9,579 nt of DNA from a virus (IMGVR_UViG_2690316286_000014); one strand, 5' to 3'; shown: positions 1 through 9,579, counted from the first letter of the stretch. A program made the numbers and translations. The notes: generated by a model from the sequence alone, not told the origin.

Positions 1-502
1 ATTTATAAACCTGCTGAAACTCGGTTTCGTCCATGTTCGCAAATGCGATAGATTTTGCCCTGCGCCCACGACTACCATCAGGATAAATATGCTCGGTGTA
101 AAATCCGGCCTGAATGGTTACCCACTCGCGGAAAGCCTCAAACGACTTTAGCAATGCTGTATCCCGGGTTCTGCGTGTCGCAACGGTATTCAGATATTGC
201 TCTGCGGCTTCGCTCAGAGCTGGCGTATGTTCCCGACCTACTGATTCGCGCAGGTACTCAACGAAGCCTGAAACCAGTTTTTGTTCGCTAGGCGTGATCG
301 CCCCTCCGACCGGAGTCCAGTAATCGAACCCCAGTTGCAGGAGTTTGAAAAAACGCTTGTGGAATGCGTAGTTACGAACGCGCTTAAAATCAGCGTGTAT
401 CCACTCACCTGTTTTGATTTGATGCAGAAAATCGCAACTCTCCGGCGTCGCCGGGAGAAGTAAACCAGAAGAAGTTTGTTTGACTAACTGTAAATGCACC
501 AC
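1..502 (-). CDS. Phage-associated hypothetical protein, N-terminal part only (gene continues past left edge)
   Basis: Minus-strand frame is open for about 179 codons from a stop at 539-541 to position 2; it is missing from the ORF track only because it has no stop inside the window. GTG starts at 502/499 are preceded by GAGGG. Translation begins VHLQLVKQTSSGLLLPATPESCDFLHQIKTGEWIHADFKRVRNYAFHKRFFKLLQLGFDYWTP... The + strand track ORFs 55..291, 114..323 and 281..463 lie antisense to it. Family not recognised with certainty; position relative to hok resembles ydfU in Qin, from memory. Confidence 0.6.
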   Translation of the reverse strand, partial: MVHLQLVKQTSSGLLLPATPESCDFLHQIKTGEWIHADFKRVRNYAFHKRFFKLLQLGFDYWTPVGGAITPSEQKLVSGFVEYLRESVGREHTPALSEAAEQYLNTVATRRTRDTALLKSFEAFREWVTIQAGFYTEHIYPDGSRGRRAKSIAFANMDETEFQQVYK

Positions 503-562
503 TACTACCCTCGTAATGGTGCGACAGGTACCAGGTGTTCAGACTGGCGTTGCCAGTATAAT

Positions 563-757
563 TTAGTCTTCTTTAATACAGAAGTGGCTTACAGAATCTG
601 CGTGCGATTCTTTGCTGATTAGAATTGCATCAGGAGGTAATGGCGTTACGATAAACTCCCCATTTTCGAGCGTTATCACTTCGTAGTGACCTGGTAAAGA
701 AAGCACAACAATCAATTCTTTAACGTTCATAACAAAAAGCCTGTGAACTTTTAACAC
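563..757 (-). CDS. Small hypothetical protein (64 aa from GTG at 757, or 55 aa from ATG at 730)
   Basis: Track ORF; stop TAA at 563-565. Internal ATG at 730 gives MNVKELIVVLSLPGHYEVITLENGEFIVTPLPPDAILISKESHADSVSHFCIKED. Only weak Shine-Dalgarno candidates at either start; no recognisable motif. Confidence 0.4.
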   Translation of the reverse strand: MLKVHRLFVMNVKELIVVLSLPGHYEVITLENGEFIVTPLPPDAILISKESHADSVSHFCIKED

Positions 758-858
758 TTCCCCTTAAGGGGTCCATCCCTCTTCTCCCTGCGCGCTACTT
801 AAGTGTTTTTGATTCTATTCCTGCGCATTCTGAAAGTTCAAACGCGTTGAAAATCGCA

Positions 859-882
859 ACAAAAAACCCGCCGAAGCGGGTT
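859..882 (-). terminator. Rho-independent terminator at the 3' end of the mok/hok transcript
   Basis: On the minus strand, a 7-bp stem AACCCGC/GCGGGTT (865-871 with 876-882) with loop TTCG is followed by TTTTTTG (forward A-run 861-866), about 70 nt after the hok stop codon. Confidence 0.6.
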
Positions 883-952
883 AAGTGCGGGTGCGTTGAG
901 GATGCCTGACACATCAGAGGTGGCGAGGGATTTCTCCCTCGCCTGGTCACTC

Positions 953-1108
953 TTACTCTCTAGATTCGTAGTCTACGAAGACAGCGACCTCCGTCTGGCC
1001 GGTTCGGATTCGTACCTCACAGAGGTCTTTCCTCGTTACCAGTGCCGTCGCTATGACGGTTAAACAGATGACGATCAGGGCGATTAACATCGCCTTTTGC
1101 TGCTTCAT
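953..1108 (-). CDS. hok: Hok/Gef-family membrane toxin (type I toxin, 51 aa)
   Basis: Translation MKQQKAMLIALIVICLTVIATALVTRKDLCEVRIRTGQTEVAVFVDYESRE has the Hok/Gef hallmarks: a single hydrophobic helix, the conserved TRKDLCEV and RTGQTEVAVF segments, and an acidic C-terminus. ATG at 1108 is preceded by AGGAG at a workable spacing. Confidence 0.85.
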   Translation of the reverse strand: MKQQKAMLIALIVICLTVIATALVTRKDLCEVRIRTGQTEVAVFVDYESRE

Positions 1109-1165
1109 AGCCTGCTTCTCCTTGCCTTTCGGCACGTAAGAGGCTAACCTACATGTGTTCAGCAT
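953..1165 (-). CDS. mok: Mok-like in-frame N-terminally extended reading frame enclosing hok (70 aa)
   Basis: ATG at 1165 is in frame with hok with no intervening stop (MLNTCRLASYVPKGKEKQA then the Hok sequence). This matches the in-frame MokC/HokC arrangement recalled for chromosomal hok loci. Confidence 0.5.
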   Translation of the reverse strand: MLNTCRLASYVPKGKEKQAMKQQKAMLIALIVICLTVIATALVTRKDLCEVRIRTGQTEVAVFVDYESRE

Positions 1166-1284
1166 GGATTGAGCCTCAGCTTAATGTTAAGCGTCTTGCA
1201 GGACGCGTAATGTTAACTGGGGCTTTTCTCTATCTGCCTTTTGGTGTTCATGCCTGAGGCAGATAGCCTCAAGCACCCATTATG

Positions 1285-1313
1285 ATTTTAACCAAAGTCT
1301 TTATATCTATAAA
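1285..1313 (-). promoter_or_regulatory. Putative sigma70 promoter for the mok/hok mRNA
   Basis: On the minus strand, -35 TTTATA (1313-1308) and -10 TAAAAT (1290-1285) are separated by 17 nt. The -10 overlaps the stop codon of the upstream peptidase gene; the predicted start near 1278 gives a leader of about 110 nt before the mok ATG. Confidence 0.3.
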
Positions 1314-2191
1314 GAGGCACAATATTACTCGATATATCATCATGTGTGCGCCTTATTCCAAACATTTTGGAAACAAAGCGTTCCCTCACTCCCGACATAT
1401 CCAGTATCTGCTTCCAAGAAGATATATCCAGCAATTCAACTGCACAGGAAAGTAAGCGAGGTTTTTCCTCAGGGATTAACTCATCCCCCATCTCTCCTTT
1501 AATCGTCCCTCTTTTATTTAGATGGATAAATCCCGTTCTCATTTGTTGTGGCGTAATCAGCCCCAAAACCGTAGCACGATAAATACACATGCGAAGACTG
1601 ATTTTCCATCGTTCTTTGAAATTAATTAGTGCATTCCAGTCAAGATGCGATCCTCGCATTTTAGGAAATTCATTAACGAACGAAACTCTAGGTACAAGGA
1701 ATGCGCTCGAAAAATAATCCGCATGATGTTCTGTAATTTTATCCCCTGTTATAATCCCTTCATGCAAAACAAGATGCCCCAGTTCATGACCGAGATCTGA
1801 GCGAAATCGACACACACTCTTTTTCGCGGAATTTCTAATTATCAATGGGCGTTTACTATTAATAGTAAACGCATCAATACGATCATCCACGCCAGATACA
1901 TGAGCAACAACAACCCCAATACTTTCCACGAAATTAACCATTGAAGATATCGGTCCCAGCCCCAACCCCCAATACCTTCTACAGGCCTCGGCAATTCTTT
2001 CAATATCTTCATCGGAGTTCAAAGGTAATCCGGACGTATCAGGAAAGTTCAATTCTGGAAGAACTATTTCTGTTTCCAAACACTTTACAAACTGCTCCAA
2101 AATTTCAGCTCGAGCCAGAATACTATTAGTTAAGGACTGCGTCCTTGATCTCTTGCTTCTGAAATGGCAGTTCTCGCTGTCTAATGGTGAT
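1288..2191 (-). CDS. ImmA/IrrE-family (Peptidase_M78 / COG2856-like) zinc metallopeptidase domain protein; C-terminal 301 codons visible, 5' part hidden by N-run
   Basis: 301 codons are open down to TAA at 1288-1290 in sequence of about 40 percent GC. HELGH sits at 1774-1788 (minus), followed by EHHADYFSSAFLVP, which fits the HEXXH...E..A..FA..LL.P pattern of ImmA/IrrE peptidases. The preceding DIERIAEACRRYWGLGLGPISSMVNFVESIGVVV also looks typical of that domain. About 130 residues C-terminal to the domain have no recognisable motif. Confidence 0.8.
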
Positions 2192-2687
2192 NNNNNNNNN
2201 NNNNNNNNNNNNNNNNNNNNNNNNNNNNNNNNNNNNNNNNNNNNNNNNNNNNNNNNNNNNNNNNNNNNNNNNNNNNNNNNNNNNNNNNNNNNNNNNNNNN
2301 NNNNNNNNNNNNNNNNNNNNNNNNNNNNNNNNNNNNNNNNNNNNNNNNNNNNNNNNNNNNNNNNNNNNNNNNNNNNNNNNNNNNNNNNNNNNNNNNNNNN
2401 NNNNNNNNNNNNNNNNNNNNNNNNNNNNNNNNNNNNNNNNNNNNNNNNNNNNNNNNNNNNNNNNNNNNNNNNNNNNNNNNNNNNNNNNNNNNNNNNNNNN
2501 NNNNNNNNNNNNNNNNNNNNNNNNNNNNNNNNNNNNNNNNNNNNNNNNNNNNNNNNNNNNNNNNNNNNNNNNNNNNNNNNNNNNNNNNNNNNNNNNNNNN
2601 NNNNNNNNNNNNNNNNNNNNNNNNNNNNNNNNNNNNNNNNNNNNNNNNNNNNNNNNNNNNNNNNNNNNNNNNNNNNNNNNNNNNNNN
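2192..2687. other. N-run (496 nt): gap or masked sequence inside the peptidase locus
   Basis: Uninterrupted n characters; length is not a multiple of 3. Confidence 1.
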
Positions 2688-3165
2688 CAAAACCTATCAG
2701 GGCTAAAAGCCACGTTGGAGGTTCGATATCTTCATCTTTTTTATTTGCAGATGGTAATTTTTCAGCCAGAACACGCCATGTAACATCATGTTCAAAATTA
2801 ACATCATCTTCAAAAAGAGATAACTGACGACACTCAACATCATTTTTACATAAGCGATGTTTCTTTTTTGGTGAATCCAGTTTATCGGTCACAAACTGTA
2901 ACGGCACCCTGTTCAGGGTAAACACAAAATTCAGAGGTGTTGAAAGAATCGCCACTCCTTTGAGTTTTTTATGATTTTTTACAAGAAAGTTTTTTATCCA
3001 TCCATAGGCCCTACATCCATTAATCCAGTTATCATCATACTCATGGCGATGGAACCATAATTCGCCAAGTACGTTAGCAAATTGCTGAAGAAGATTGATA
3101 ACAGATTTTTCATCCAAACAAGGATTGATTTCAAAACACGGTTGGAGATTCTGTTCAGACGGCAT
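2688..3165 (-). CDS. AT-rich hypothetical protein, N-terminal 159 codons visible; either the N-terminus of the peptidase protein or a separate upstream gene
   Basis: Open frame of 159 codons in sequence of roughly 30-35 percent GC, where random stops would be frequent. ATG at 3165 is preceded by GAGGG about 7 nt upstream. Translation MPSEQNLQPCFEINPCLDEKSVINLLQQFANVLGELWFHRHEYDDNWINGCRAYGW... has no HTH or other motif I can recognise. It shares a coordinate frame with 1288..2191 (the track's 639-aa ORF), but the N-run makes that uninformative. Confidence 0.6.
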
Positions 3166-3319
3166 AAGGTATCCCTCTCTCTTAAAACTCCGCTCATCTT
3201 TACGCAAAATTTTATTTTTGTAAACCTAATCTTTGGGGTATTTCACGAATTCGTCAACCAGTTGAACGAACTTTAACCACAATACATATTTATCTACATT
3301 GATATGAGTATCGCTAACA

Positions 3320-3550
3320 CTATTGTGGGCATTCAGCTAGTATTACCAAGCCTTCAGGTGCGCGAAGTTGTTCCACACAGTGCAGCAGCGCATCAGTCGC
3401 TTCCTTAAGCGTCACAGTGTCGCCATCACCCAGTCCTGCAATTTTTGCGTGCCTGACAAACGCCGCGCAAAGGTCGTTAAACGCCCCTGCCCGCACATCC
3501 GCCAGGAAAGCATTAGCAGCAGCCAATTCCTGGTAGTCAATCCTGCTCAC
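3320..3550 (-). CDS. Hypothetical protein (76 aa), translationally coupled to the upstream gene
   Basis: GTG at 3550-3548 overlaps the TGA stop of the upstream gene (GTGA) and is preceded by AGGAGG. Translation VSRIDYQELAAANAFLADVRAGAFNDLCAAFVRHAKIAGLGDGDTVTLKEATDALLHCVEQLRAPEGLVILAECPQ. It is the 3' part of track ORF 3320..3619. Confidence 0.55.
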   Translation of the reverse strand: MSRIDYQELAAANAFLADVRAGAFNDLCAAFVRHAKIAGLGDGDTVTLKEATDALLHCVEQLRAPEGLVILAECPQ

Positions 3551-3972
3551 TGCGCCGCCTCCTGAAAATTCCCCTGATAGAAAGCCAGTACACACTGCAT
3601 AACTTCGCTCTTCCTGCACTCGCGACAGATTATGTTCTGTCGTCTGTTGTAACGACGTATTTCGCCGTCTGGTAACGACCAGATAAGGTCCGGATCAACC
3701 ACAGATGTTTTTTTCTTCAGTTTTGCCCTTGATAGTTTTTTGCGGGCGTTTTGCCAGTCCTTACGAGCCTGTTCAGACGGGAATAACCCGTAGCCAGAGT
3801 TGTATACATCCCCACTGGCAACCAGCTCTCTGGCGAGAACGCTTATTAAATATCTTGTCGCCCCGGTTTTAGCTTCCAGTTGTCGTAACGTCTCGCGCCC
3901 ACTCTGGCGTACGAGTTCAACAACCTGCCCCTTAATTTTTTCCCGCTCTTCCTGTGTAAATACTTTTGCCAT
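3547..3972 (-). CDS. Small phage protein with a winged-helix-like N-terminal domain (141 aa); paralog of the gene at 5634..5889
   Basis: ATG at 3972 (MAKVFTQEEREKIKG...). The first 85 residues align with the MAKPFTPEQREELKT... protein at 5889, sharing ELVASGDVYNSGYG.FPSEQA.KDWQNARKKLSR. Codon usage is E. coli-like. Confidence 0.75.
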   Translation of the reverse strand: MAKVFTQEEREKIKGQVVELVRQSGRETLRQLEAKTGATRYLISVLARELVASGDVYNSGYGLFPSEQARKDWQNARKKLSRAKLKKKTSVVDPDLIWSLPDGEIRRYNRRQNIICRECRKSEVMQCVLAFYQGNFQEAAQ

Positions 3973-3987
3973 AAGCGCCCCCGGCAA

Positions 3988-4713
3988 TCACTTTTCCGAC
4001 ACAATACGACCGGAGGAATCGACAATCTGTCGAACAATATCCCGGTGCTTGTTCAGCTCCCGCAACGCGGCGCAGACACGCTCCCACTTCTGGACATGAC
4101 TTTTCGCCCGACGCAGTTCGCGGTTTGCCATATGCAGCGATGGTAAAACCAGGTCATCCGCTTGCGTTTCGGTGAACGATGGCAACGACTGCACAATGTC
4201 CGCCACAGTTTCTGTTTTAATTTCTTCCTGTGTTGCAGCTTCCTGTACCGGTAACGCAACACCTGCTGGCTGAGGAAAGACTTTACCATCCGTTTCCGCT
4301 ATGGATGCGGCTTTCGGCTCTGCCGGTAAATCAGCGCCCGGTATGCAGTACCGAAATTTACCGCCCTGATTCACGCGAATCAGACGCCCTTTGCTGATTG
4401 CCATGGCCAGCGATGAATTCGCCCGGCGGGAGGTAATCCCGAACATCAGTGCCAGCTCATCCGCCGTTTGTGGGCCATGTTGTTCAATCGCCTCAGTCAG
4501 CATTTGCGCTGTCACTTTCGGTACCGGTGACACTGGTTCACTTTCACCAGCCTGAATCAGCCACCACATCGAACCCTTGTTATCCGCTTCACCACGGCGC
4601 TTCAGTTTCCACAGTTCGTTGACCGCATCTTCACGGCTGATTCCAAGGCGGGACGCCACCACATGTGAAGAGGCTCTTTTCAGTGCTTTCAGTGCGTCAA
4701 ATACAGTTTCCAT
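3988..4713 (-). CDS. Phage protein with two winged-helix-like segments (241 aa), function unknown
   Basis: ATG at 4713 ([12 protein letters not shown]...) is preceded by GGAGG 7 nt upstream; the track ORF starts 6 codons earlier at a TTG. Stop at 3988-3990. Confidence 0.75.
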
Positions 4714-4734
4714 TAAAACATCCTCCAACAAAAA

Positions 4735-5350
4735 TTACTTCACAACTCCCGGAAAGCTGACATTTGAACGCCAGCTATCCCAGTTAAACGTCACCCACCG
4801 ACAACCGTTCATGGTCATGCGGTCCATAATNNNNNNNNNNNNNNNNNNNNNNNNNNNNNNNNNNNNNNNNNNNNNNNNNNNNNNNNNNNNNNNNNNNNNN
4901 NNNNNNNNNNNNNNNNNNNNNNNNNNNNNNNNNNNNNNNNNNNNNNNNNNNNNNNNNNNNNNNNNNNNNNNNNNNNNNNNNNNNNNNNNNNNNNNNNNNN
5001 NNNNNNNNNNNNNNNNNNNNNNNNNNNNNNNNNNNNNNNNNNNNNNNNNNNNNNNNNNNNNNNNNNNNNNNNNNNNNNNNNNNNNNNNNNNNNNNNNNNN
5101 NNNNNNNNNNNNNNNNNNNNNNNNNNNNNNNNNNNNNNNNNNNNNNNNNNNNNNNNNNNNNNNNNNNNNNNNNNNNNNNNNNNNNNNNNNNNNNNNNNNN
5201 NNNNNNNNNNNNNNNNNNNNNNNNNNNNNNNNNNNNNNNNNNNNNNNNNNNNNNNNNNNNNNNNNNNNNNNNNNNNNNNNNGGATTTGGCCTGGCTCAGC
5301 GCGTATTTTTGCCCGTCGTTCTGCACCTGATAATTCGCAAACGAGCATTT
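4735..5350 (-). CDS. Second, diverged DnaC-like helicase-loader copy (C-terminal 31 codons and a 23-codon internal island visible; remainder is N)
   Basis: 4735-4830 translates to IMDRMTMNGCRWVTFNWDSWRSNVSFPGVVK then stop, against VMDRMVMNGGRWVNFNWESWRPNVSHSRVVK at the end of the 5904..6650 protein. The island 5282-5350 translates to KCSFANYQVQNDGQKYALSQAKS against KCSFANYRAQNDGQRHALSQAKS. The two visible parts are not in the same coordinate frame across the 451-nt N-run, so the gene may be disrupted or the N-run length may not be exact. Confidence 0.5.
4831..5281. other. N-run (451 nt): gap or masked sequence
   Basis: Uninterrupted n characters. Confidence 1.
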
Positions 5351-5633
5351 NNNNNNNNNNNNNNNNNNNNNNNNNNNNNNNNNNNNNNNNNNNNNNNNNN
5401 NNNNNNNNNNNNNNNNNNNNNNNNNNNNNNNNNNNNNNNNNNNNNNNNNNNNNNNNNNNNNNNNNNNNNNNNNNNNNNNNNNNNNNNNNNNNNNNNNNNN
5501 NNNNNNNNNNNNNNNNNNNNNNNNNNNNNNNNNNNNNNNNNNNNNNNNNNNNNNNNNNNNNNNNNNNNNNNNNNNNNNNNNNNNNNNNNNNNNNNNNNNN
5601 NNNNNNNNNNNNNNNNNNNNNNNNNNNNNNNNN
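5351..5633. other. N-run (283 nt): gap or masked sequence
   Basis: Uninterrupted n characters. Confidence 1.
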
Positions 5634-5889
5634 TCACCTTTACCCTCGATAGCTTTTTGCGGGCGTTTTGCCAGTCTTTATGAGCCTGTTCAGAGGGAAA
5701 TACCCCGTAGCCAGAATTATATACATCACCACTTGCGACCAGTTCCATGCATAAGCGACCGACAGACGCACGACTGATACCTGTTTCATCTGACAACTGC
5801 CGAATCGTGACCCGACCGTCCTGATGCACGAGTTCCACAATTCGCGTCTTCAGTTCTTCCCGCTGTTCGGGAGTAAAAGGTTTCGCCAT
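5634..5889 (-). CDS. Small phage protein with a winged-helix-like domain; N-terminal 85 codons visible, 3' end in N-run
   Basis: ATG at 5889 is preceded by AGGAGG. Translation MAKPFTPEQREELKTRIVELVHQDGRVTIRQLSDETGISRASVGRLCMELVASGDVYNSGYGVFPSEQAHKDWQNARKKLSRVKV is paralogous to the 3547..3972 product. Confidence 0.7.
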
Positions 5890-5903
5890 AAATCCTCCTG
5901 AAA

Positions 5904-6650
5904 CTACTTAACAACCCTCGAATGGCTAACATTCGGACGCCAGCTCTCCCAGTTAAAATTCACCCAGCGCCCGCCGTTCATGACCATGCGATCCATCACC
6001 CGCTCGCCGAGAAGTGTATTCATCGCTGCATGGTTAATATTTGTCAGCATCCCCACACCGCGTAACGATGCCGTCCGGCGATCAACAATCTGGTTCAGTA
6101 CCACCTGCTCGTTTTTCGTATCCCGCTGCATGCCAATTTCATCCAGGACCAGCAGGTCAACACCACAAAGCTCCTGTAAAAATTTTTCACCGGATTTGCC
6201 GTTGTCGTAGCTCTCATGCAACACGCTCATGACATCGGACACGGTGACGATAATCACGCTACGCCCCTTCGCCATCAGCCGGTTGCCAATCGCGTCTGCA
6301 AGATGATTTTTTCCGGTGCCGGGCTTACCGCTGAACACAAAATTCGTACAGCCTGTCATCAGTTCGTCAGCTATGGATTTCGCCTGACTCAGTGCATGTC
6401 GCTGACCGTCGTTCTGCGCCCGGTAATTCGCAAACGAACACTTCCGGTGCAACGGCTGGATGCCGGAGCGGTTCAGGATTTTTTCCACCCGCAACTGACG
6501 ATTCAGGCGGTTGATCTCCTCGCAACGTTTCTGGCCTTCAGCAAGTTGCCACTCGCGCCACTCCGCTACCGTTCTGAATGGGGCGGTTACATGTGGCGGG
6601 GTCAGTCGGCGGATGCGTTCCAGAACGCCTCCTGTCGCAATATTTTTCAT
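5904..6650 (-). CDS. DnaC/IstB-like AAA+ helicase loader (prophage replication protein, 248 aa)
   Basis: Walker A GKPGTGKNHLA and Walker B LLVLDEIG are present. The protein is close to chromosomal DnaC along its whole length as I recall it (NRSGI.PLH..CSF.NYR, LTNSN-like segment, GERVMDRM). ATG at 6650. Confidence 0.9.
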   Translation of the reverse strand: MKNIATGGVLERIRRLTPPHVTAPFRTVAEWREWQLAEGQKRCEEINRLNRQLRVEKILNRSGIQPLHRKCSFANYRAQNDGQRHALSQAKSIADELMTGCTNFVFSGKPGTGKNHLADAIGNRLMAKGRSVIIVTVSDVMSVLHESYDNGKSGEKFLQELCGVDLLVLDEIGMQRDTKNEQVVLNQIVDRRTASLRGVGMLTNINHAAMNTLLGERVMDRMVMNGGRWVNFNWESWRPNVSHSRVVK

Positions 6651-6656
6651 GGTCTG

Positions 6657-7856
6657 TTACCCCCTGAAGCCTGGCGGGATCGCACTGTCCGGCAACGAGA
6701 CGGTGTTAACCTGTCGGAGCAACGTCTCAGGCCGAACACCTTTCGGCGCGAACAGACCCTGGTATTCATTGGCGATGCTGTGTCGAATCACCTGCTCAGG
6801 TGTAAAACCCTGCTGACGGAATTTTTCCAGTTCCCGTATCGCCCCGTTAGCGCCCTGCTCCGTTCGAATCGGTTTTCGCAATGCCTGCCTGAACTGGACC
6901 CACTCATGCCAGAGTGTTTCTGGCAACCAGTCGGGCAGATCAACTGACAACGGGTCAAATTTTTTCTGGCGAACAGCCCCACCGATAACCAGAATTCCCT
7001 GCTCGGTGTGCCTTGCGATATCACTGCGCCGCAAGACACATATCCCGGTTTCAACAGCACCGATTTTGAGCAGTGATTTCTGTCGCGGAGAATTTCGGTC
7101 AAGCTCGCTCCCACACCGGACACCGTTCCTGTCAGTCACGACGATATCAATCCGCCCTCCGCAACCGTCACCACGCTCTGGCACCGGATACTCACGACAG
7201 ACATCCAGGCCAGCAGCCTGCAACGCAACCACCGCAGAATTACAAAATTCCGCTGCAGTACCGCCAGATAATCTCCCCTCAAGCACTCCAGCCACAAAAT
7301 CCCGAAACTCCCTTCCGGAAGGGAAGGGTTTGGGATGGGTTAGATCTGTTTTTAGATCTTTATCTGTATCTTTATTAGTTGCCTTTGTGTTGGCATCATG
7401 TTCGAACATCACTCCAACATCTGTTTGAACACCTGTTAAATTTCTCTCTTGTTTTGTTTGAACATCTGCTTCCTTTCTGCTTCTTCTGGCCTGAACAGAT
7501 GCTTTTCCTGCGGCTGATTTTTTGGTTAATTTTTCTCTGACAGATGCCAGATCTTCCTCAATCCGAAGATGCATCCATTCGTCGCCGTTATCACAAAAAA
7601 ACTCCCGCAAGGATGGTTCAACATCAACCCATCGCTCGTTAGTCAGACGGGCAATTTTTGCCAACCTGTTTTTGGGTATTGGCTTTCCTGTTTGCCAGTA
7701 ATTGAACATCAGCAACAAATACGCGCCGTGCTCCTCTGCTGACAAATGCATGGTGTCAGCCAGGTAATCAGCTATGTACAGTTGCATGTATGGTAATGCG
7801 GCCATAATTGCCCCGTATGATGCTGCCCGGTTGCTTAGAATAAGCACAAACAGCAT
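6657..7856 (-). CDS. Phage replication initiation protein: DUF1376-like N-terminal domain plus DnaT-like C-terminal domain (YdaU-like, 399 aa; true start may be the internal ATG near 7805)
   Basis: N-terminus MAALPYMQLYIADYLADTMHLSAEEHGAYLLLMFNYWQTG is DUF1376-like. C-terminus ...VNTVSLPDSAIPPGFRG matches the DnaT C-terminus as recalled. A low-complexity K/T/D-rich linker lies between them. The stop is 4 nt upstream of the DnaC-like start, a dnaT-dnaC-like pairing. Confidence 0.85.
   Translation of the reverse strand: MLFVLILSNRAASYGAIMAALPYMQLYIADYLADTMHLSAEEHGAYLLLMFNYWQTGKPIPKNRLAKIARLTNERWVDVEPSLREFFCDNGDEWMHLRIEEDLASVREKLTKKSAAGKASVQARRSRKEADVQTKQERNLTGVQTDVGVMFEHDANTKATNKDTDKDLKTDLTHPKPFPSGREFRDFVAGVLEGRLSGGTAAEFCNSAVVALQAAGLDVCREYPVPERGDGCGGRIDIVVTDRNGVRCGSELDRNSPRQKSLLKIGAVETGICVLRRSDIARHTEQGILVIGGAVRQKKFDPLSVDLPDWLPETLWHEWVQFRQALRKPIRTEQGANGAIRELEKFRQQGFTPEQVIRHSIANEYQGLFAPKGVRPETLLRQVNTVSLPDSAIPPGFRG
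7340..7505. repeat. Iteron-like direct and inverted repeats with an adjacent AT-rich segment: candidate replication origin inside the initiator gene
   Basis: Near-identical 14-mers TGTTTGAACACCTG (7422-7435) and TGTTTGAACATCTG (7455-7468); related copies TGTTCGAACATC (7399-7410) and AACATCTGTT (7416-7425); inverted copy CCTGAACAGATGC (7489-7501). An AT-rich block at 7340-7378 contains TTAGATCT twice. Confidence 0.4.
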
Positions 7857-7868
7857 GGAAACTTTTGC

Positions 7869-8290
7869 TTAATGAACAATGACAGAATCGTCGGAAGACC
7901 CGCCGCCGCTGAAATGCGCTTTCCGGTAAACGGCCTGGACTGCATCATCATGCGCATCAATTGCCGTACTCAACGCTTCCTGCGCCGCCAGTAATGCACG
8001 GCGTTCCAGGGTATCGAAGATGCAGAGTCGGTGACGCAGCTCGCGCGGAAGAATTGCCAGAACCGCAGGGATCAGTTTCTGAATTTTTTCCCTTTGCGCT
8101 TTCGTTTCACCTTTCAACCAACGGTGATAGATATTCTGCTGATTGTTCCAGTCCTTGCCTGGTACAAGGGGCAATTCGCCGCCCCCCTGGCGCAGATATT
8201 CTTCAGTAATTGCGTTAGCGACCCACGCCTGCCCTTTTTCGGCTGCCAGGGCAACAGCACTGATTCGATGTGCTCATGCCTGATTTTCAT
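7869..8290 (-). CDS. YdaT/CII-like prophage regulator with an apparent frameshift near 8252-8256 (possible pseudogene or sequencing error)
   Basis: ATG at 8290-8288 overlaps the Cro-like stop (ATGA) and reads MKIRHEHIESVLL before drifting into rare codons and a stop. The coding-like frame with E. coli codon usage (...ALAAEKGQAWVANAITEEYLRQGGGELPLVPGKDWNNQQ...SDDSVIVH) is offset by one and has no standard start before the TTG at 8174 (track ORF 7869..8174). One extra base in the + strand run GCAACAG would join the two into about 140 aa, the size I recall for YdaT. Confidence 0.6.
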
Positions 8291-8529
8291 GAATCAACCG
8301 CTCCTATGCTGTTTTCGCTATGCTTACCGTCTGGGGGGAATACATCGTCAAGTCCACAATGAGCGCCAAGCCGATTAAGGGTAGAAACAATTTTTCTGCA
8401 CTCCTCTAGTCCAGGGGTACGAAAATTTGCTTCGTAATTTGCCAGTCGGCTTTGTATCCACCCTAACTGAACAGCAAGTTGTCTTTGAGACAGCCCAAGC
8501 TGTTTTCGATATGTTGAAATTTTGTTCAT
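8287..8529 (-). CDS. Cro-like XRE-family helix-turn-helix regulator (80 aa)
   Basis: ATG at 8529 with GGAGG 5 nt upstream. HTH segment LGLSQRQLAVQLGWIQSRLANYE. Divergent from the repressor gene. Confidence 0.85.
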   Translation of the reverse strand: MNKISTYRKQLGLSQRQLAVQLGWIQSRLANYEANFRTPGLEECRKIVSTLNRLGAHCGLDDVFPPDGKHSENSIGAVDS

Positions 8530-8625
8530 TGAAAACCTCCGATGACAATTTTAAACACACCTTGTGTTATATAGCCAAGCTGTTTTGTGTTTTATGTAAA
8601 TCACGATTCGTGATACAAGGATGCA
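8530..8625. promoter_or_regulatory. Divergent promoter/operator region of the immunity switch
   Basis: 96-bp intergenic region between divergent HTH genes. Contains the 7-1-7 inverted repeat ATCACGAtTCGTGAT (8600-8614), AACAC-N5-GTGTT (8554-8568) and TTGTGTT twice (8562-8568, 8585-8591). A minus-strand promoter candidate is -35 TTGGCT (8578-8573) with -10 TAAAAT (8553-8548). Confidence 0.55.
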
Positions 8626-9045
8626 ATGGAAAAAGAAAACGAAAAAATTGCCGCTAGTAGGCTCAATGACAAAATTGCAATGCGTCTTAAAGAGCGCAGG
8701 CAGAAGCTTGGTTTATCTCAAGGAAAACTTGCTGAAATCTGCGGATGGACGCAATCGCGTATAGGTAACTATGAGGCGGGCAGCAGAAATGTTGGAGTAC
8801 ATGACGCTGTCGTATTGGGAAAGGCACTTGGCATATCTCCTCCTGAGCTCCTCTTTGGAGAACAGGAATCTTCTGAATTGTGGTTAAATGAATCCCAACG
8901 AAAACTTCTTGAGTTGTTTAACCAGCTACCGGGCTCAGAACAACAACGAATGATTGAGCTATTTGAAGTCCGGCTAAAAGAAATCGATGAGTATGTAGAA
9001 AAATATTTGAGAGGCAGGATTAAAGATAATCCCCCACCGGAATAA
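8626..9045 (+). CDS. CI/DicA-like XRE-family HTH prophage repressor (139 aa), no LexA-like autocleavage domain
   Basis: HTH segment LGLSQGKLAEICGWTQSRIGNYEAG. The C-terminal LLELFNQLPGSEQQ resembles the DicA C-terminus as recalled. ATG at 8626 with AAGGA upstream; stop TAA at 9043-9045. Confidence 0.9.
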   Translation: MEKENEKIAASRLNDKIAMRLKERRQKLGLSQGKLAEICGWTQSRIGNYEAGSRNVGVHDAVVLGKALGISPPELLFGEQESSELWLNESQRKLLELFNQLPGSEQQRMIELFEVRLKEIDEYVEKYLRGRIKDNPPPE

Positions 9046-9075
9046 TGATCTTGCTATCACAGTAATATGCCAATC

Positions 9076-9099
9076 AGCCCGCTATCAGCGGGCTTTTTT
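9076..9099 (+). terminator. Rho-independent terminator downstream of the repressor gene
   Basis: 8-bp stem AGCCCGCT/AGCGGGCT (9076-9083 with 9087-9094), loop ATC, followed by TTTTT (9095-9099). Confidence 0.7.
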
Positions 9100-9141
9100 G
9101 TAGCATCATCATATGACACTCACCATAAAACACATTGCGTG

Positions 9142-9170
9142 TTGACACAAGAAAACAAATTGTGTTTAAT
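9142..9170 (+). promoter_or_regulatory. Sigma70 promoter (PL-like) for the rightward small-gene operon
   Basis: -35 TTGACA (9142-9147), 17-nt spacer, -10 TTTAAT (9165-9170). The spacer carries ACAA...TTGT / TTGTGTT elements resembling those in the 8530-8625 operator region. Confidence 0.55.
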
Positions 9171-9350
9171 AAGCATATCCAAACAACGCCCCACCAGAGA
9201 ACGGCAGGACAATACCTCGAGTTATCCAGTCACTGAACAGGGCTAAGTAGCCAGCCTGAGGCATACGAACATGACGGCAGTTGTTGATTGATACAAAGCG
9301 CAGTAGATAAAACGTTCCGCCACCCGGCGTTAAGGGGAAATGGGGTCAAC

Positions 9351-9506
9351 ATGAATACTATCGATCTTGGCAACAACGAATCTCTGGTATGTGGCGTGTT
9401 TCCCAATCAAGACGGCACATTCACCGCCATGACGTATACCAAAAGCAAAACGTTTAAAACCGAAGCTGGCGCACGTCGTTGGTTGGGAAGACATTCAGGT
9501 GAGTAA
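9351..9506 (+). CDS. Small phage protein (51 aa), first gene downstream of the PL-like promoter
   Basis: ATG at 9351 (MNTIDLGNNESLVCGVFPNQDGTFTAMTYTKSKTFKTEAGARRWLGRHSGE); internal start within track ORF 9288..9506. Its position after the repressor resembles the small ydaF/ydaG-type genes of Rac-like prophages. No motif recognised. Confidence 0.45.
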   Translation: MNTIDLGNNESLVCGVFPNQDGTFTAMTYTKSKTFKTEAGARRWLGRHSGE

Positions 9507-9579
9507 AATGAACGAGACAGAATTAAAACACGTTATCGCTCTACTCCTAAATAGCTGCGCGGAATAGTAGATCACTTTG

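Follow-up and report, generated by a model that had tools for sequence, protein, structure and literature searches.

Two ydaV genes in apparent tandem on a Shigella sonnei-type draft scaffold most likely come from separate prophages

The stretch of viral DNA analyzed here (IMGVR_UViG_2690316286_000014), referred to as the window in its full length of 9,579 nucleotides, appears to carry two diverged copies of a DnaC-like gene, ydaV, and two copies of a winged-helix gene. This arrangement raises the question of whether a single prophage holds a tandem pair of helicase-loader paralogs, as proposed in the initial annotation, or whether the pair was created when the sequence was assembled. All the genes relevant to this question are on the minus strand, and gene order is described here from high to low coordinates. 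The window is interrupted by three N-runs, at positions 2192-2687 (496 bases), 4831-5281 (451 bases), and 5351-5633 (283 bases). The evidence presented below makes it very probable that the apparent tandem consists of paralogous genes of separate prophages that were put in series by the assembler or the scaffolder. Most likely, it represents neither a duplication nor a disrupted gene, and on the present evidence, the genome itself does not contain such a tandem.

Following gene order, a frame-shifted YdaT-like gene is located upstream of the gene encoding a YdaU-type replication initiator of 399 aa (6657-7856, minus strand; DUF1376, Pfam PF07120, E=7e-25). The exact 399-aa protein is present in S. 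sonnei 53G (HE616528.1) and in others, and its gene is always followed by ydaV and then by DUF977. In the window, the next gene is the intact copy 1 of ydaV (5904-6650, minus strand), which encodes a putative DnaC/IstB-like AAA+ protein of 248 aa (Pfam IstB_IS21, E=4e-18; Bac_DnaA, E=4e-7); exact-protein look-up located the same protein in complete S. sonnei chromosomes. It is followed by the first 85 codons of DUF977 copy 1 (5634-5889, minus strand; Pfam DUF977, E=2e-19; HTH_24, E=4e-7), a gene truncated by the scaffold gap, whose full-length counterpart has 138-140 aa in two of the fetched loci (L010 and L019). These genes belong to what we call module (i), and the 283 N at 5351-5633, an N-run found in the public record, are its sole link to the fragments of the second ydaV (ydaV'). 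The first of these fragments is a 69-nt island (5282-5350, minus strand) that corresponds to codons 70-92 of the allele of a different module, module (ii); the second, beyond the scaffold gap at 4831-5281, is the 3' end of the gene (4735-4830, minus strand), with codons 218-248 and the stop codon. Module (ii) continues with a YdaW-like DUF1627 gene of 241 aa (3988-4713, minus strand; Pfam PF07789, E=6e-93); the exact protein is present in S. sonnei Ss046 (CP000038.1) and in others, where a single ydaV always precedes its gene. DUF977 copy 2 (3547-3972, minus strand; 141 aa) is next, and after it come a 76-aa gene, two genes interrupted by the 496-base N-run, hok/sok, and DUF1367.

The likeness between ydaV and ydaV' is far above chance. 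Within the window, the alignment of 4736-4827 with 5905-5996 showed 73 identical positions out of 92 (79.3%), and that of 5282-5350 with 6375-6443 showed 55 out of 69 (79.7%), in agreement with the value of about 80% that had been estimated for the visible pieces. That this likeness is beyond chance follows from the full-length alleles, whose identity is 84.8% at the DNA level and 83% at the protein level, the latter over 248 residues without gaps. The observation that the winged-helix gene also occurs twice was confirmed, since 5634-5891 and 3717-3974 are identical at 182 of 259 positions (70%) and PF06163 matches both copies, with 70.5 bits for the fragment of copy 1 and 108.4 bits for copy 2. 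The fragment of copy 1 also retains an N-terminal winged-helix signal (HTH_24, 29.9 bits; cut-off 21.9). For the ydaV products, the PF01695 score was 66.1 bits for copy 1 and 69.9 bits for the full copy 2 allele, taken from the locus L002 (cut-off 24.1), and Bac_DnaA was above its own cut-off for both alleles. Both carry a Walker A motif, GKPGTGKN or GKTGTGKN, and the Walker B motif LLVLDEIG. In the YdaV Walker A motif, the lysine is followed by Asn, at a position where Ser or Thr is usual. Judging from these domain matches, both products are predicted to be ordinary DnaC/IstB-like AAA+ ATPases. The YdaV proteins are presumably helicase loaders, each acting with the YdaU-type initiator that the same prophage encodes; their homology and the position of ydaV beside the YdaU initiator-like gene suggest that they load the host DnaB at the phage origin.

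The window is the exact reverse complement of the whole contig CXCS01000143.1 (GCA_001260675.1; locus L020), with the N-runs included. The gene calls stored for this contig stop exactly at the edges of the N-runs, and they include an 85-aa DUF977 and a 23-aa 'gene' on the island; therefore, the public record itself contains the N-runs. Of the 39 loci that were fetched, N-runs (1 to 496 bases) occurred in draft assemblies only, with lengths that include 1, 7, 9, 11, 17, 69, 230, 377, and 484, and the loci from finished chromosomes had 0. The window is most likely a short-read draft scaffold from an S. sonnei-type genome, in which the N-runs mark gaps whose size was estimated. CXBN01, CXBR, and CXBV, which are neighbouring accession series, are attributed to isolates of S. 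sonnei from Holt et al. 2012, and CP000038.1 and HE616528.1 are S. sonnei Ss046 and S. sonnei 53G, respectively (PMC5447701). The Sanger pipeline, which uses Velvet, SSPACE, and GapFiller, was applied to 299 S. sonnei samples and gave a mean of 405 contigs; the joins made by this pipeline receive a gap 'of an unknown number of bases (N)', and greedy scaffolding tools 'can lead to false joins' (Page et al. 2016, PMC5320598). Judging from its accession series and the style of its N-gaps, the CXCS01 assembly was probably made by this pipeline.

Comparison with the fetched loci revealed three source prophages in this one scaffold, and the identities of the pieces were observed directly. Module (i), at 5634-9579, matches the Rac-like prophage of S. 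sonnei 53G (L010) at 99.8% identity, and the order there is cI-cro-YdaT-YdaU(399 aa)-ydaV-DUF977, with an IS3-family element next. Module (ii), which comprises 3734-4830 and the island at 5282-5350, has 0 mismatches to a Qin-like remnant of S. sonnei (L002), with the order DicB ... YdaT-YdaU(354 aa)-ydaV-DUF1627(241 aa)-DUF977(140 aa)-118 aa-methyltransferase-restriction enzyme. In this remnant, the island corresponds with 100% identity to 5440-5508, and the 3' end of ydaV' to 5884-5979, both in phase 0. The third source, phage (iii), contributes its right arm, which accounts for 1-2191 and 2688-3777, with 0 mismatches to a complete lambdoid prophage (L021, in the context of L021-L029). The replication module of this phage consists of an O-like HTH_36 protein and a DnaB-family helicase, with ydaV absent from L021-L029, and it is followed by DUF1627(253 aa)-DUF977(141 aa)-76 aa-216 aa-M78-hok-DUF1367. 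DUF977 copy 2 is a chimera, with its N-terminal part from module (ii) and its C-terminal part from phage (iii). According to the mismatch positions in a three-way alignment, the source switches inside this gene within a 44-nt stretch common to both (3734-3777, equivalent to 6937-6980 of L002). An exact-protein look-up across the whole collection found the chimeric 141-aa protein in only one contig on record, CXCS01000143.1 itself.

We then considered whether the two ydaV genes are neighbours in any other sequence. In the complete chromosome CP032523.1, ydaV' is located at 4,076,639-4,077,385 and ydaV copy 1 at 4,155,544-4,156,290, about 79 kb apart, so modules (i) and (ii), which flank the gap in the window, were directly seen to occupy non-adjacent loci. 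In all the finished S. sonnei loci that were fetched, each module has one ydaV. A megablast search with 3300-6700 against 5,426 complete E. coli genomes gave no match in which both ydaV copies are side by side; the best single place covered 61% of this region (one ydaV, DUF1627, and DUF977), compared with about 78% for a true tandem. Megablast searches with 5634-5960, 4560-4830, and 2688-4830 against complete E. coli genomes found the modules apart, and a search with 1-4830 against phages found separate modules; none of these searches returned a tandem. The exact-protein look-ups of five proteins from the window retrieved the source contig and the three parent prophages, and no second contig with the same joins. 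Within the window, no contiguous sequence runs from one ydaV copy to the other, and their sole connection crosses the N-runs 5351-5633 and 4831-5281. The proposal that two loader paralogs lie in tandem in one prophage, as a result of mosaicism or duplication, is thus not upheld, given the intact twin of ydaV' about 79 kb away in a finished chromosome. It is weakened further because the placement of ydaV' hangs on two N-gaps, in a scaffold that has another chimeric junction.

The sister drafts provided additional evidence, as they join the same modules in other ways. In the contig CXCR01000135.1 (L033), which has a neighbouring accession, there is an N-gap at every junction. This contig begins with module (ii) 4181-5239, N484, module (ii) 5669-6879, N9, module (i) 8970-10152, and N11. 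It continues with a 131-nt island, which matches a third ydaV allele (L017 type) with 100% identity, N69, module (i) 9714-11601, in which 9714-10152 is duplicated, N7, and module (ii) 6922-7616. The order is physically implausible, with module (i) nested in the module (ii) DUF977 gene. In another locus (L016), two replication modules are in series with a single N at the join, and in the sister drafts, N-runs of 1, 7, 9, 11, and 17 bases are found at junctions of unrelated loci. These tangles are direct observations; since L033 and L016 tangle the same modules differently, the pattern of a partial DUF977 copy 1, a gap, a paralogous ydaV island, and a gap recurs as a product of assembly.

The very probable origin of the apparent tandem in the assembly can be outlined as follows. 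The genome would bear several lambdoid prophages or remnants with paralogous ydaV, DUF1627, and DUF977 genes, and the assembler and the scaffolder would line up pieces of (i), (ii), and (iii) across gaps of estimated size. The second ydaV would then be the intact gene of the Qin-like remnant, sited elsewhere in the chromosome. Neither the junction of (i) with (ii) nor the change from (ii) to (iii) would reflect real recombination in the isolate; both would be false joins. The exact matches between the paralogs count against a scaffolding error, as do the layout of (i) and (ii) in CP032523.1 and the scaffold distance described below. The exact stretches shared by the ydaV alleles are 47, 26, and 26 nt, and those shared by the DUF977 genes are 21-26 nt; shared stretches of 47, 44, and 26 nt fall in or near the gaps. 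When exact repeats shared by the paralogs (k = 21-41) were considered as the cause of the contig ends, no exact coincidence with these ends was found. These short repeats do not account for the presumed false link from 5634, the end of DUF977 copy 1, to the island.

An alternative that we consider improbable, but that deserves to be weighed in full, is that this isolate truly has the order of the scaffold: a recent recombination event, or the IS-mediated loss of about 79 kb, would have fused (i) to (ii), and a second, homologous exchange in DUF977 would have added (iii). Lambdoid phages are well known as mosaic. In CP032523.1, (i) lies upstream of (ii) in the same orientation, about 79 kb away, and an IS element is located directly after DUF977 copy 1; therefore, a deletion of this kind could yield the order of the scaffold. 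Nevertheless, an IS left at the junction (about 1.2 kb) is too big for the 283-nt gap, and the junction between (i) and (ii) is inside an N-gap, where it is never visible. The distance in the scaffold across 4831-5633 is 803 nt, near the 818 nt for a head-to-tail tandem; however, the complete E. coli genomes (5,426) yielded zero tandem matches, and the orders in which the sister drafts join the same modules are not only different but impossible. As for the switch between (ii) and (iii), it is contiguous, and 44 nt of identity in a region that is about 95% identical would be a plausible substrate for homologous recombination. Yet the chimeric DUF977 is on a single contig, even though the collection indexes the DUF1627 protein of S. 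sonnei in 5,498 blocks. A real arrangement would also demand two independent rare events in one isolate, with 100% identity to the parent on both sides each time. If it were true, the isolate would carry one composite prophage in which a Rac-like YdaU-YdaV-DUF977 set is directly followed by a Qin-like YdaV with 83% identity, that is, with two helicase-loader paralogs. This would be a private rearrangement of common prophage remnants, of limited biological interest.

The lengths of the N-runs bear on the state of the second gene. The stretches 1-2191 and 2688-3777 are each 100% identical to L021, where the spacing between them is 377 bases, compared with 496 N in the window (2192-2687), an error of +119 that serves as a control for gap size. 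Similarly, the flanks of the gap in ydaV' (4831-5281) are 100% identical to L002, where 375 real bases of the gene occupy the place of the 451 N (error of +76). L009 is a draft of the same series in which the sequence on either side is collinear with a finished genome; this genome has 240 bases where the draft has 377 N (+137), and 242 bases at a second gap of 230 N (-12). The N-run lengths are therefore estimates, and they were wrong wherever they could be checked against identical flanks. In window coordinates, the island starts 547 nt on from the stop codon of ydaV' at 4735, whereas the equivalent distance in copy 1 is 471 nt, an excess of 76 nt; as 547 mod 3 = 1, the visible pieces of ydaV' differ in frame. 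The initial annotation was correct in describing both the different frames and a hidden stretch about 76 nt too long. Given that 496 N correspond to 377 bases and 451 N to 375, and that the gaps in L009 are also off, this inconsistency is an ordinary error in the estimation of gap size. When the true spacing, that of L002, is used, the two pieces fit an intact ORF of 248 aa in phase 0, with 100% identity. No frame-breaking change was found in the visible pieces when compared with this ORF, and the shift exists only in the arithmetic of the N-run. Read in this way, the second ydaV is predicted to be intact and not frame-shifted. Of the two possibilities that had been offered to explain the frames, the one in which the number of N differs from the number of bases replaced is supported by both gaps, and the one in which the second copy is disrupted is at odds with the complete identity of its pieces to the intact ORF. 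An insertion of 76 nt, the size of a tRNA, in ydaV' was also considered and is unsupported, the excess being of the same type of error as in the other gaps. The warning that the 639-aa ORF over the first N-run is not evidence of a single gene proved justified, since L021 has two overlapping genes in this place; the 216-aa protein has no Pfam match, and the 373-aa protein has HTH_3 and Peptidase_M78 domains.

These lengths also weigh on a reading that we regard as very unlikely, in which the N-runs are one-for-one masks and ydaV' is a pseudogene with a real frame-shifting insertion of 76 nt. In its favour, the excess of 76 nt does exist in window coordinates, and some stretches in one collection are masked; however, masking would need an insertion of 119 nt under the first N-run, with flanks 100% identical to L021, as well as changes of +137 and -12 nt under the N-runs of L009. 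In addition, the recorded gene calls already treat the N-runs as sequence ends, the short N-runs of the sister drafts (1, 7, 9, 11, and 17) join unrelated loci, and the visible bases of ydaV' are free of any mutation relative to the intact gene. Finally, we give almost no credence to the idea that a ydaV-DUF977 unit was duplicated in tandem long ago within one prophage and then diverged to about 80-85% identity. Two ydaV and two DUF977 genes that share an orientation and fit into 3 kb of scaffold would agree with it, but the present data already contradict it: the two copies match genes of two different prophages, at separate chromosomal loci, with 99.8-100% identity, the gene orders are unlike (ydaV-DUF977 versus ydaV-DUF1627-DUF977), and no relative among the genomes searched and the loci fetched shows the duplication, which relatives would share if it were old.

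We thus return to paralogous genes of separate prophages put in series during assembly as the preferred explanation of this locus. In draft bacterial assemblies, N-runs are estimated gaps, and frame arithmetic and ORFs that extend across them are meaningless. In IS-rich genomes such as that of S. sonnei, paralogous prophage modules are often serial in one scaffold. The features observed here are the same as those of the scaffold errors known from Velvet, SSPACE, and GapFiller (PMC5320598), namely, N-gaps of estimated size, small islands, joins between paralogs, and sister assemblies that are tangled in different ways. The locus also resembles the products of mosaic recombination among lambdoid phages, in that its three sources share interchangeable ydaV, DUF1627, DUF977, hok, and DUF1367 genes that are 70-95% identical. 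In contrast, real mosaics are contiguous and inherited by relatives, whereas of the two junctions here, one is hidden in an N-gap and the other occurs in a single draft contig only.

The closest known system is the ydaU-ydaV-ydaW module of the Rac prophage, followed by DUF977/LygF, in E. coli and Shigella, which has the same genes, order, and Pfam families as those found here. In Rac, YdaU is a DUF1376 initiator-like protein, YdaV a DnaC/IstB-like ATPase, and YdaW a DUF1627 protein. The RefSeq labels of the E. coli counterparts are 'phage replication initiator YdaU family protein', 'ydaV: ATP-binding protein', 'DUF1627 domain-containing protein', and 'DUF977 family protein', and phage records use the names ydaW and LygF. 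There is no substantive difference between the Rac module and those described here: finished genomes have one ydaV per module, and the second ydaV in the window is that of the other module of the same genome.

The DUF977 copy 2 gene (141 aa, winged helix; 3547-3972, minus strand) contains the point at which the contig changes source. Within it, a 44-nt stretch (3734-3777) is common to both sources, and there the contig passes from 100% identity with L002, the second, Qin-like prophage remnant of S. sonnei, to 100% identity with L021, a complete lambdoid prophage, so that each side matches a different prophage. The hybrid 141-aa protein encoded across this stretch is on record in a single contig, that of the window itself. 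This switch represents either a mis-join in the de Bruijn graph or a private recombination event.

Joins of related modules were also observed in other drafts. In the sister draft L033 (CXCR01000135.1), a 131-nt island flanked by an N-gap on each side (3958-4088) is 100% identical to a third allele of ydaV, the DnaC/IstB-like ATPase gene, of the type found in L017 and L016. Therefore, S. sonnei-type genomes carry at least three ydaV paralogs, which are interleaved by the draft scaffolds. In the draft L016 (FUDH01000158.1), one complete replication module, YdaU-ydaV-DUF977, is followed by a second complete one, YdaT-...-ydaV-DUF977. Since these modules meet at a single N (position 4215), this series is probably a scaffolding join too.

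In phage L021, whose sequence is identical, the 639-aa ORF on the minus strand at 1288-3207, which spans the N-run at 2192-2687, corresponds to two genes that overlap. One of them encodes a 216-aa protein without a Pfam match; the product of the other is 373 aa long and carries HTH_3 at its N-terminus as well as a Peptidase_M78 (ImmA/IrrE-like) domain. In other relatives, the slot held by this pair is occupied by QueH, or by a methyltransferase and a restriction enzyme. A hok/sok toxin-antitoxin locus is located at 953-1278 (minus strand), where a full-length Rfam match to sok (RF01794, 120 bits; 1103-1278) overlaps the beginning of an ORF of the Hok/Gef family (70 aa; 953-1165).

In the Rac-like module, two divergent HTH_3 repressor-like genes of 80 aa (8287-8529, minus strand) and 139 aa (8626-9045, plus strand), separated by a 96-nt spacer, constitute its cI/cro-type immunity switch; a terminator-like hairpin follows the pair at about 9073-9100. 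Compared with its counterpart in S. sonnei 53G, the YdaT-like gene (7869-8290, minus strand) lacks 1 nt and has an SNP close by, at about 8253-8257; these two changes break the 140-aa protein into ORFs of 58 and 101 aa. Because the same 101-aa form was also called in the drafts L014, L015 and L019, the split gene may mark a lineage instead of reflecting a sequencing error.

Both YdaV alleles (window 5904-6650; L002 5233-5979) have a canonical Walker B motif, LLVLDEIG, and a Walker A motif that reads G(K/T)xGTGKN. After the Walker A lysine both alleles have Asn, at a position where Ser or Thr is usually found in DnaC/IstB ATPases.
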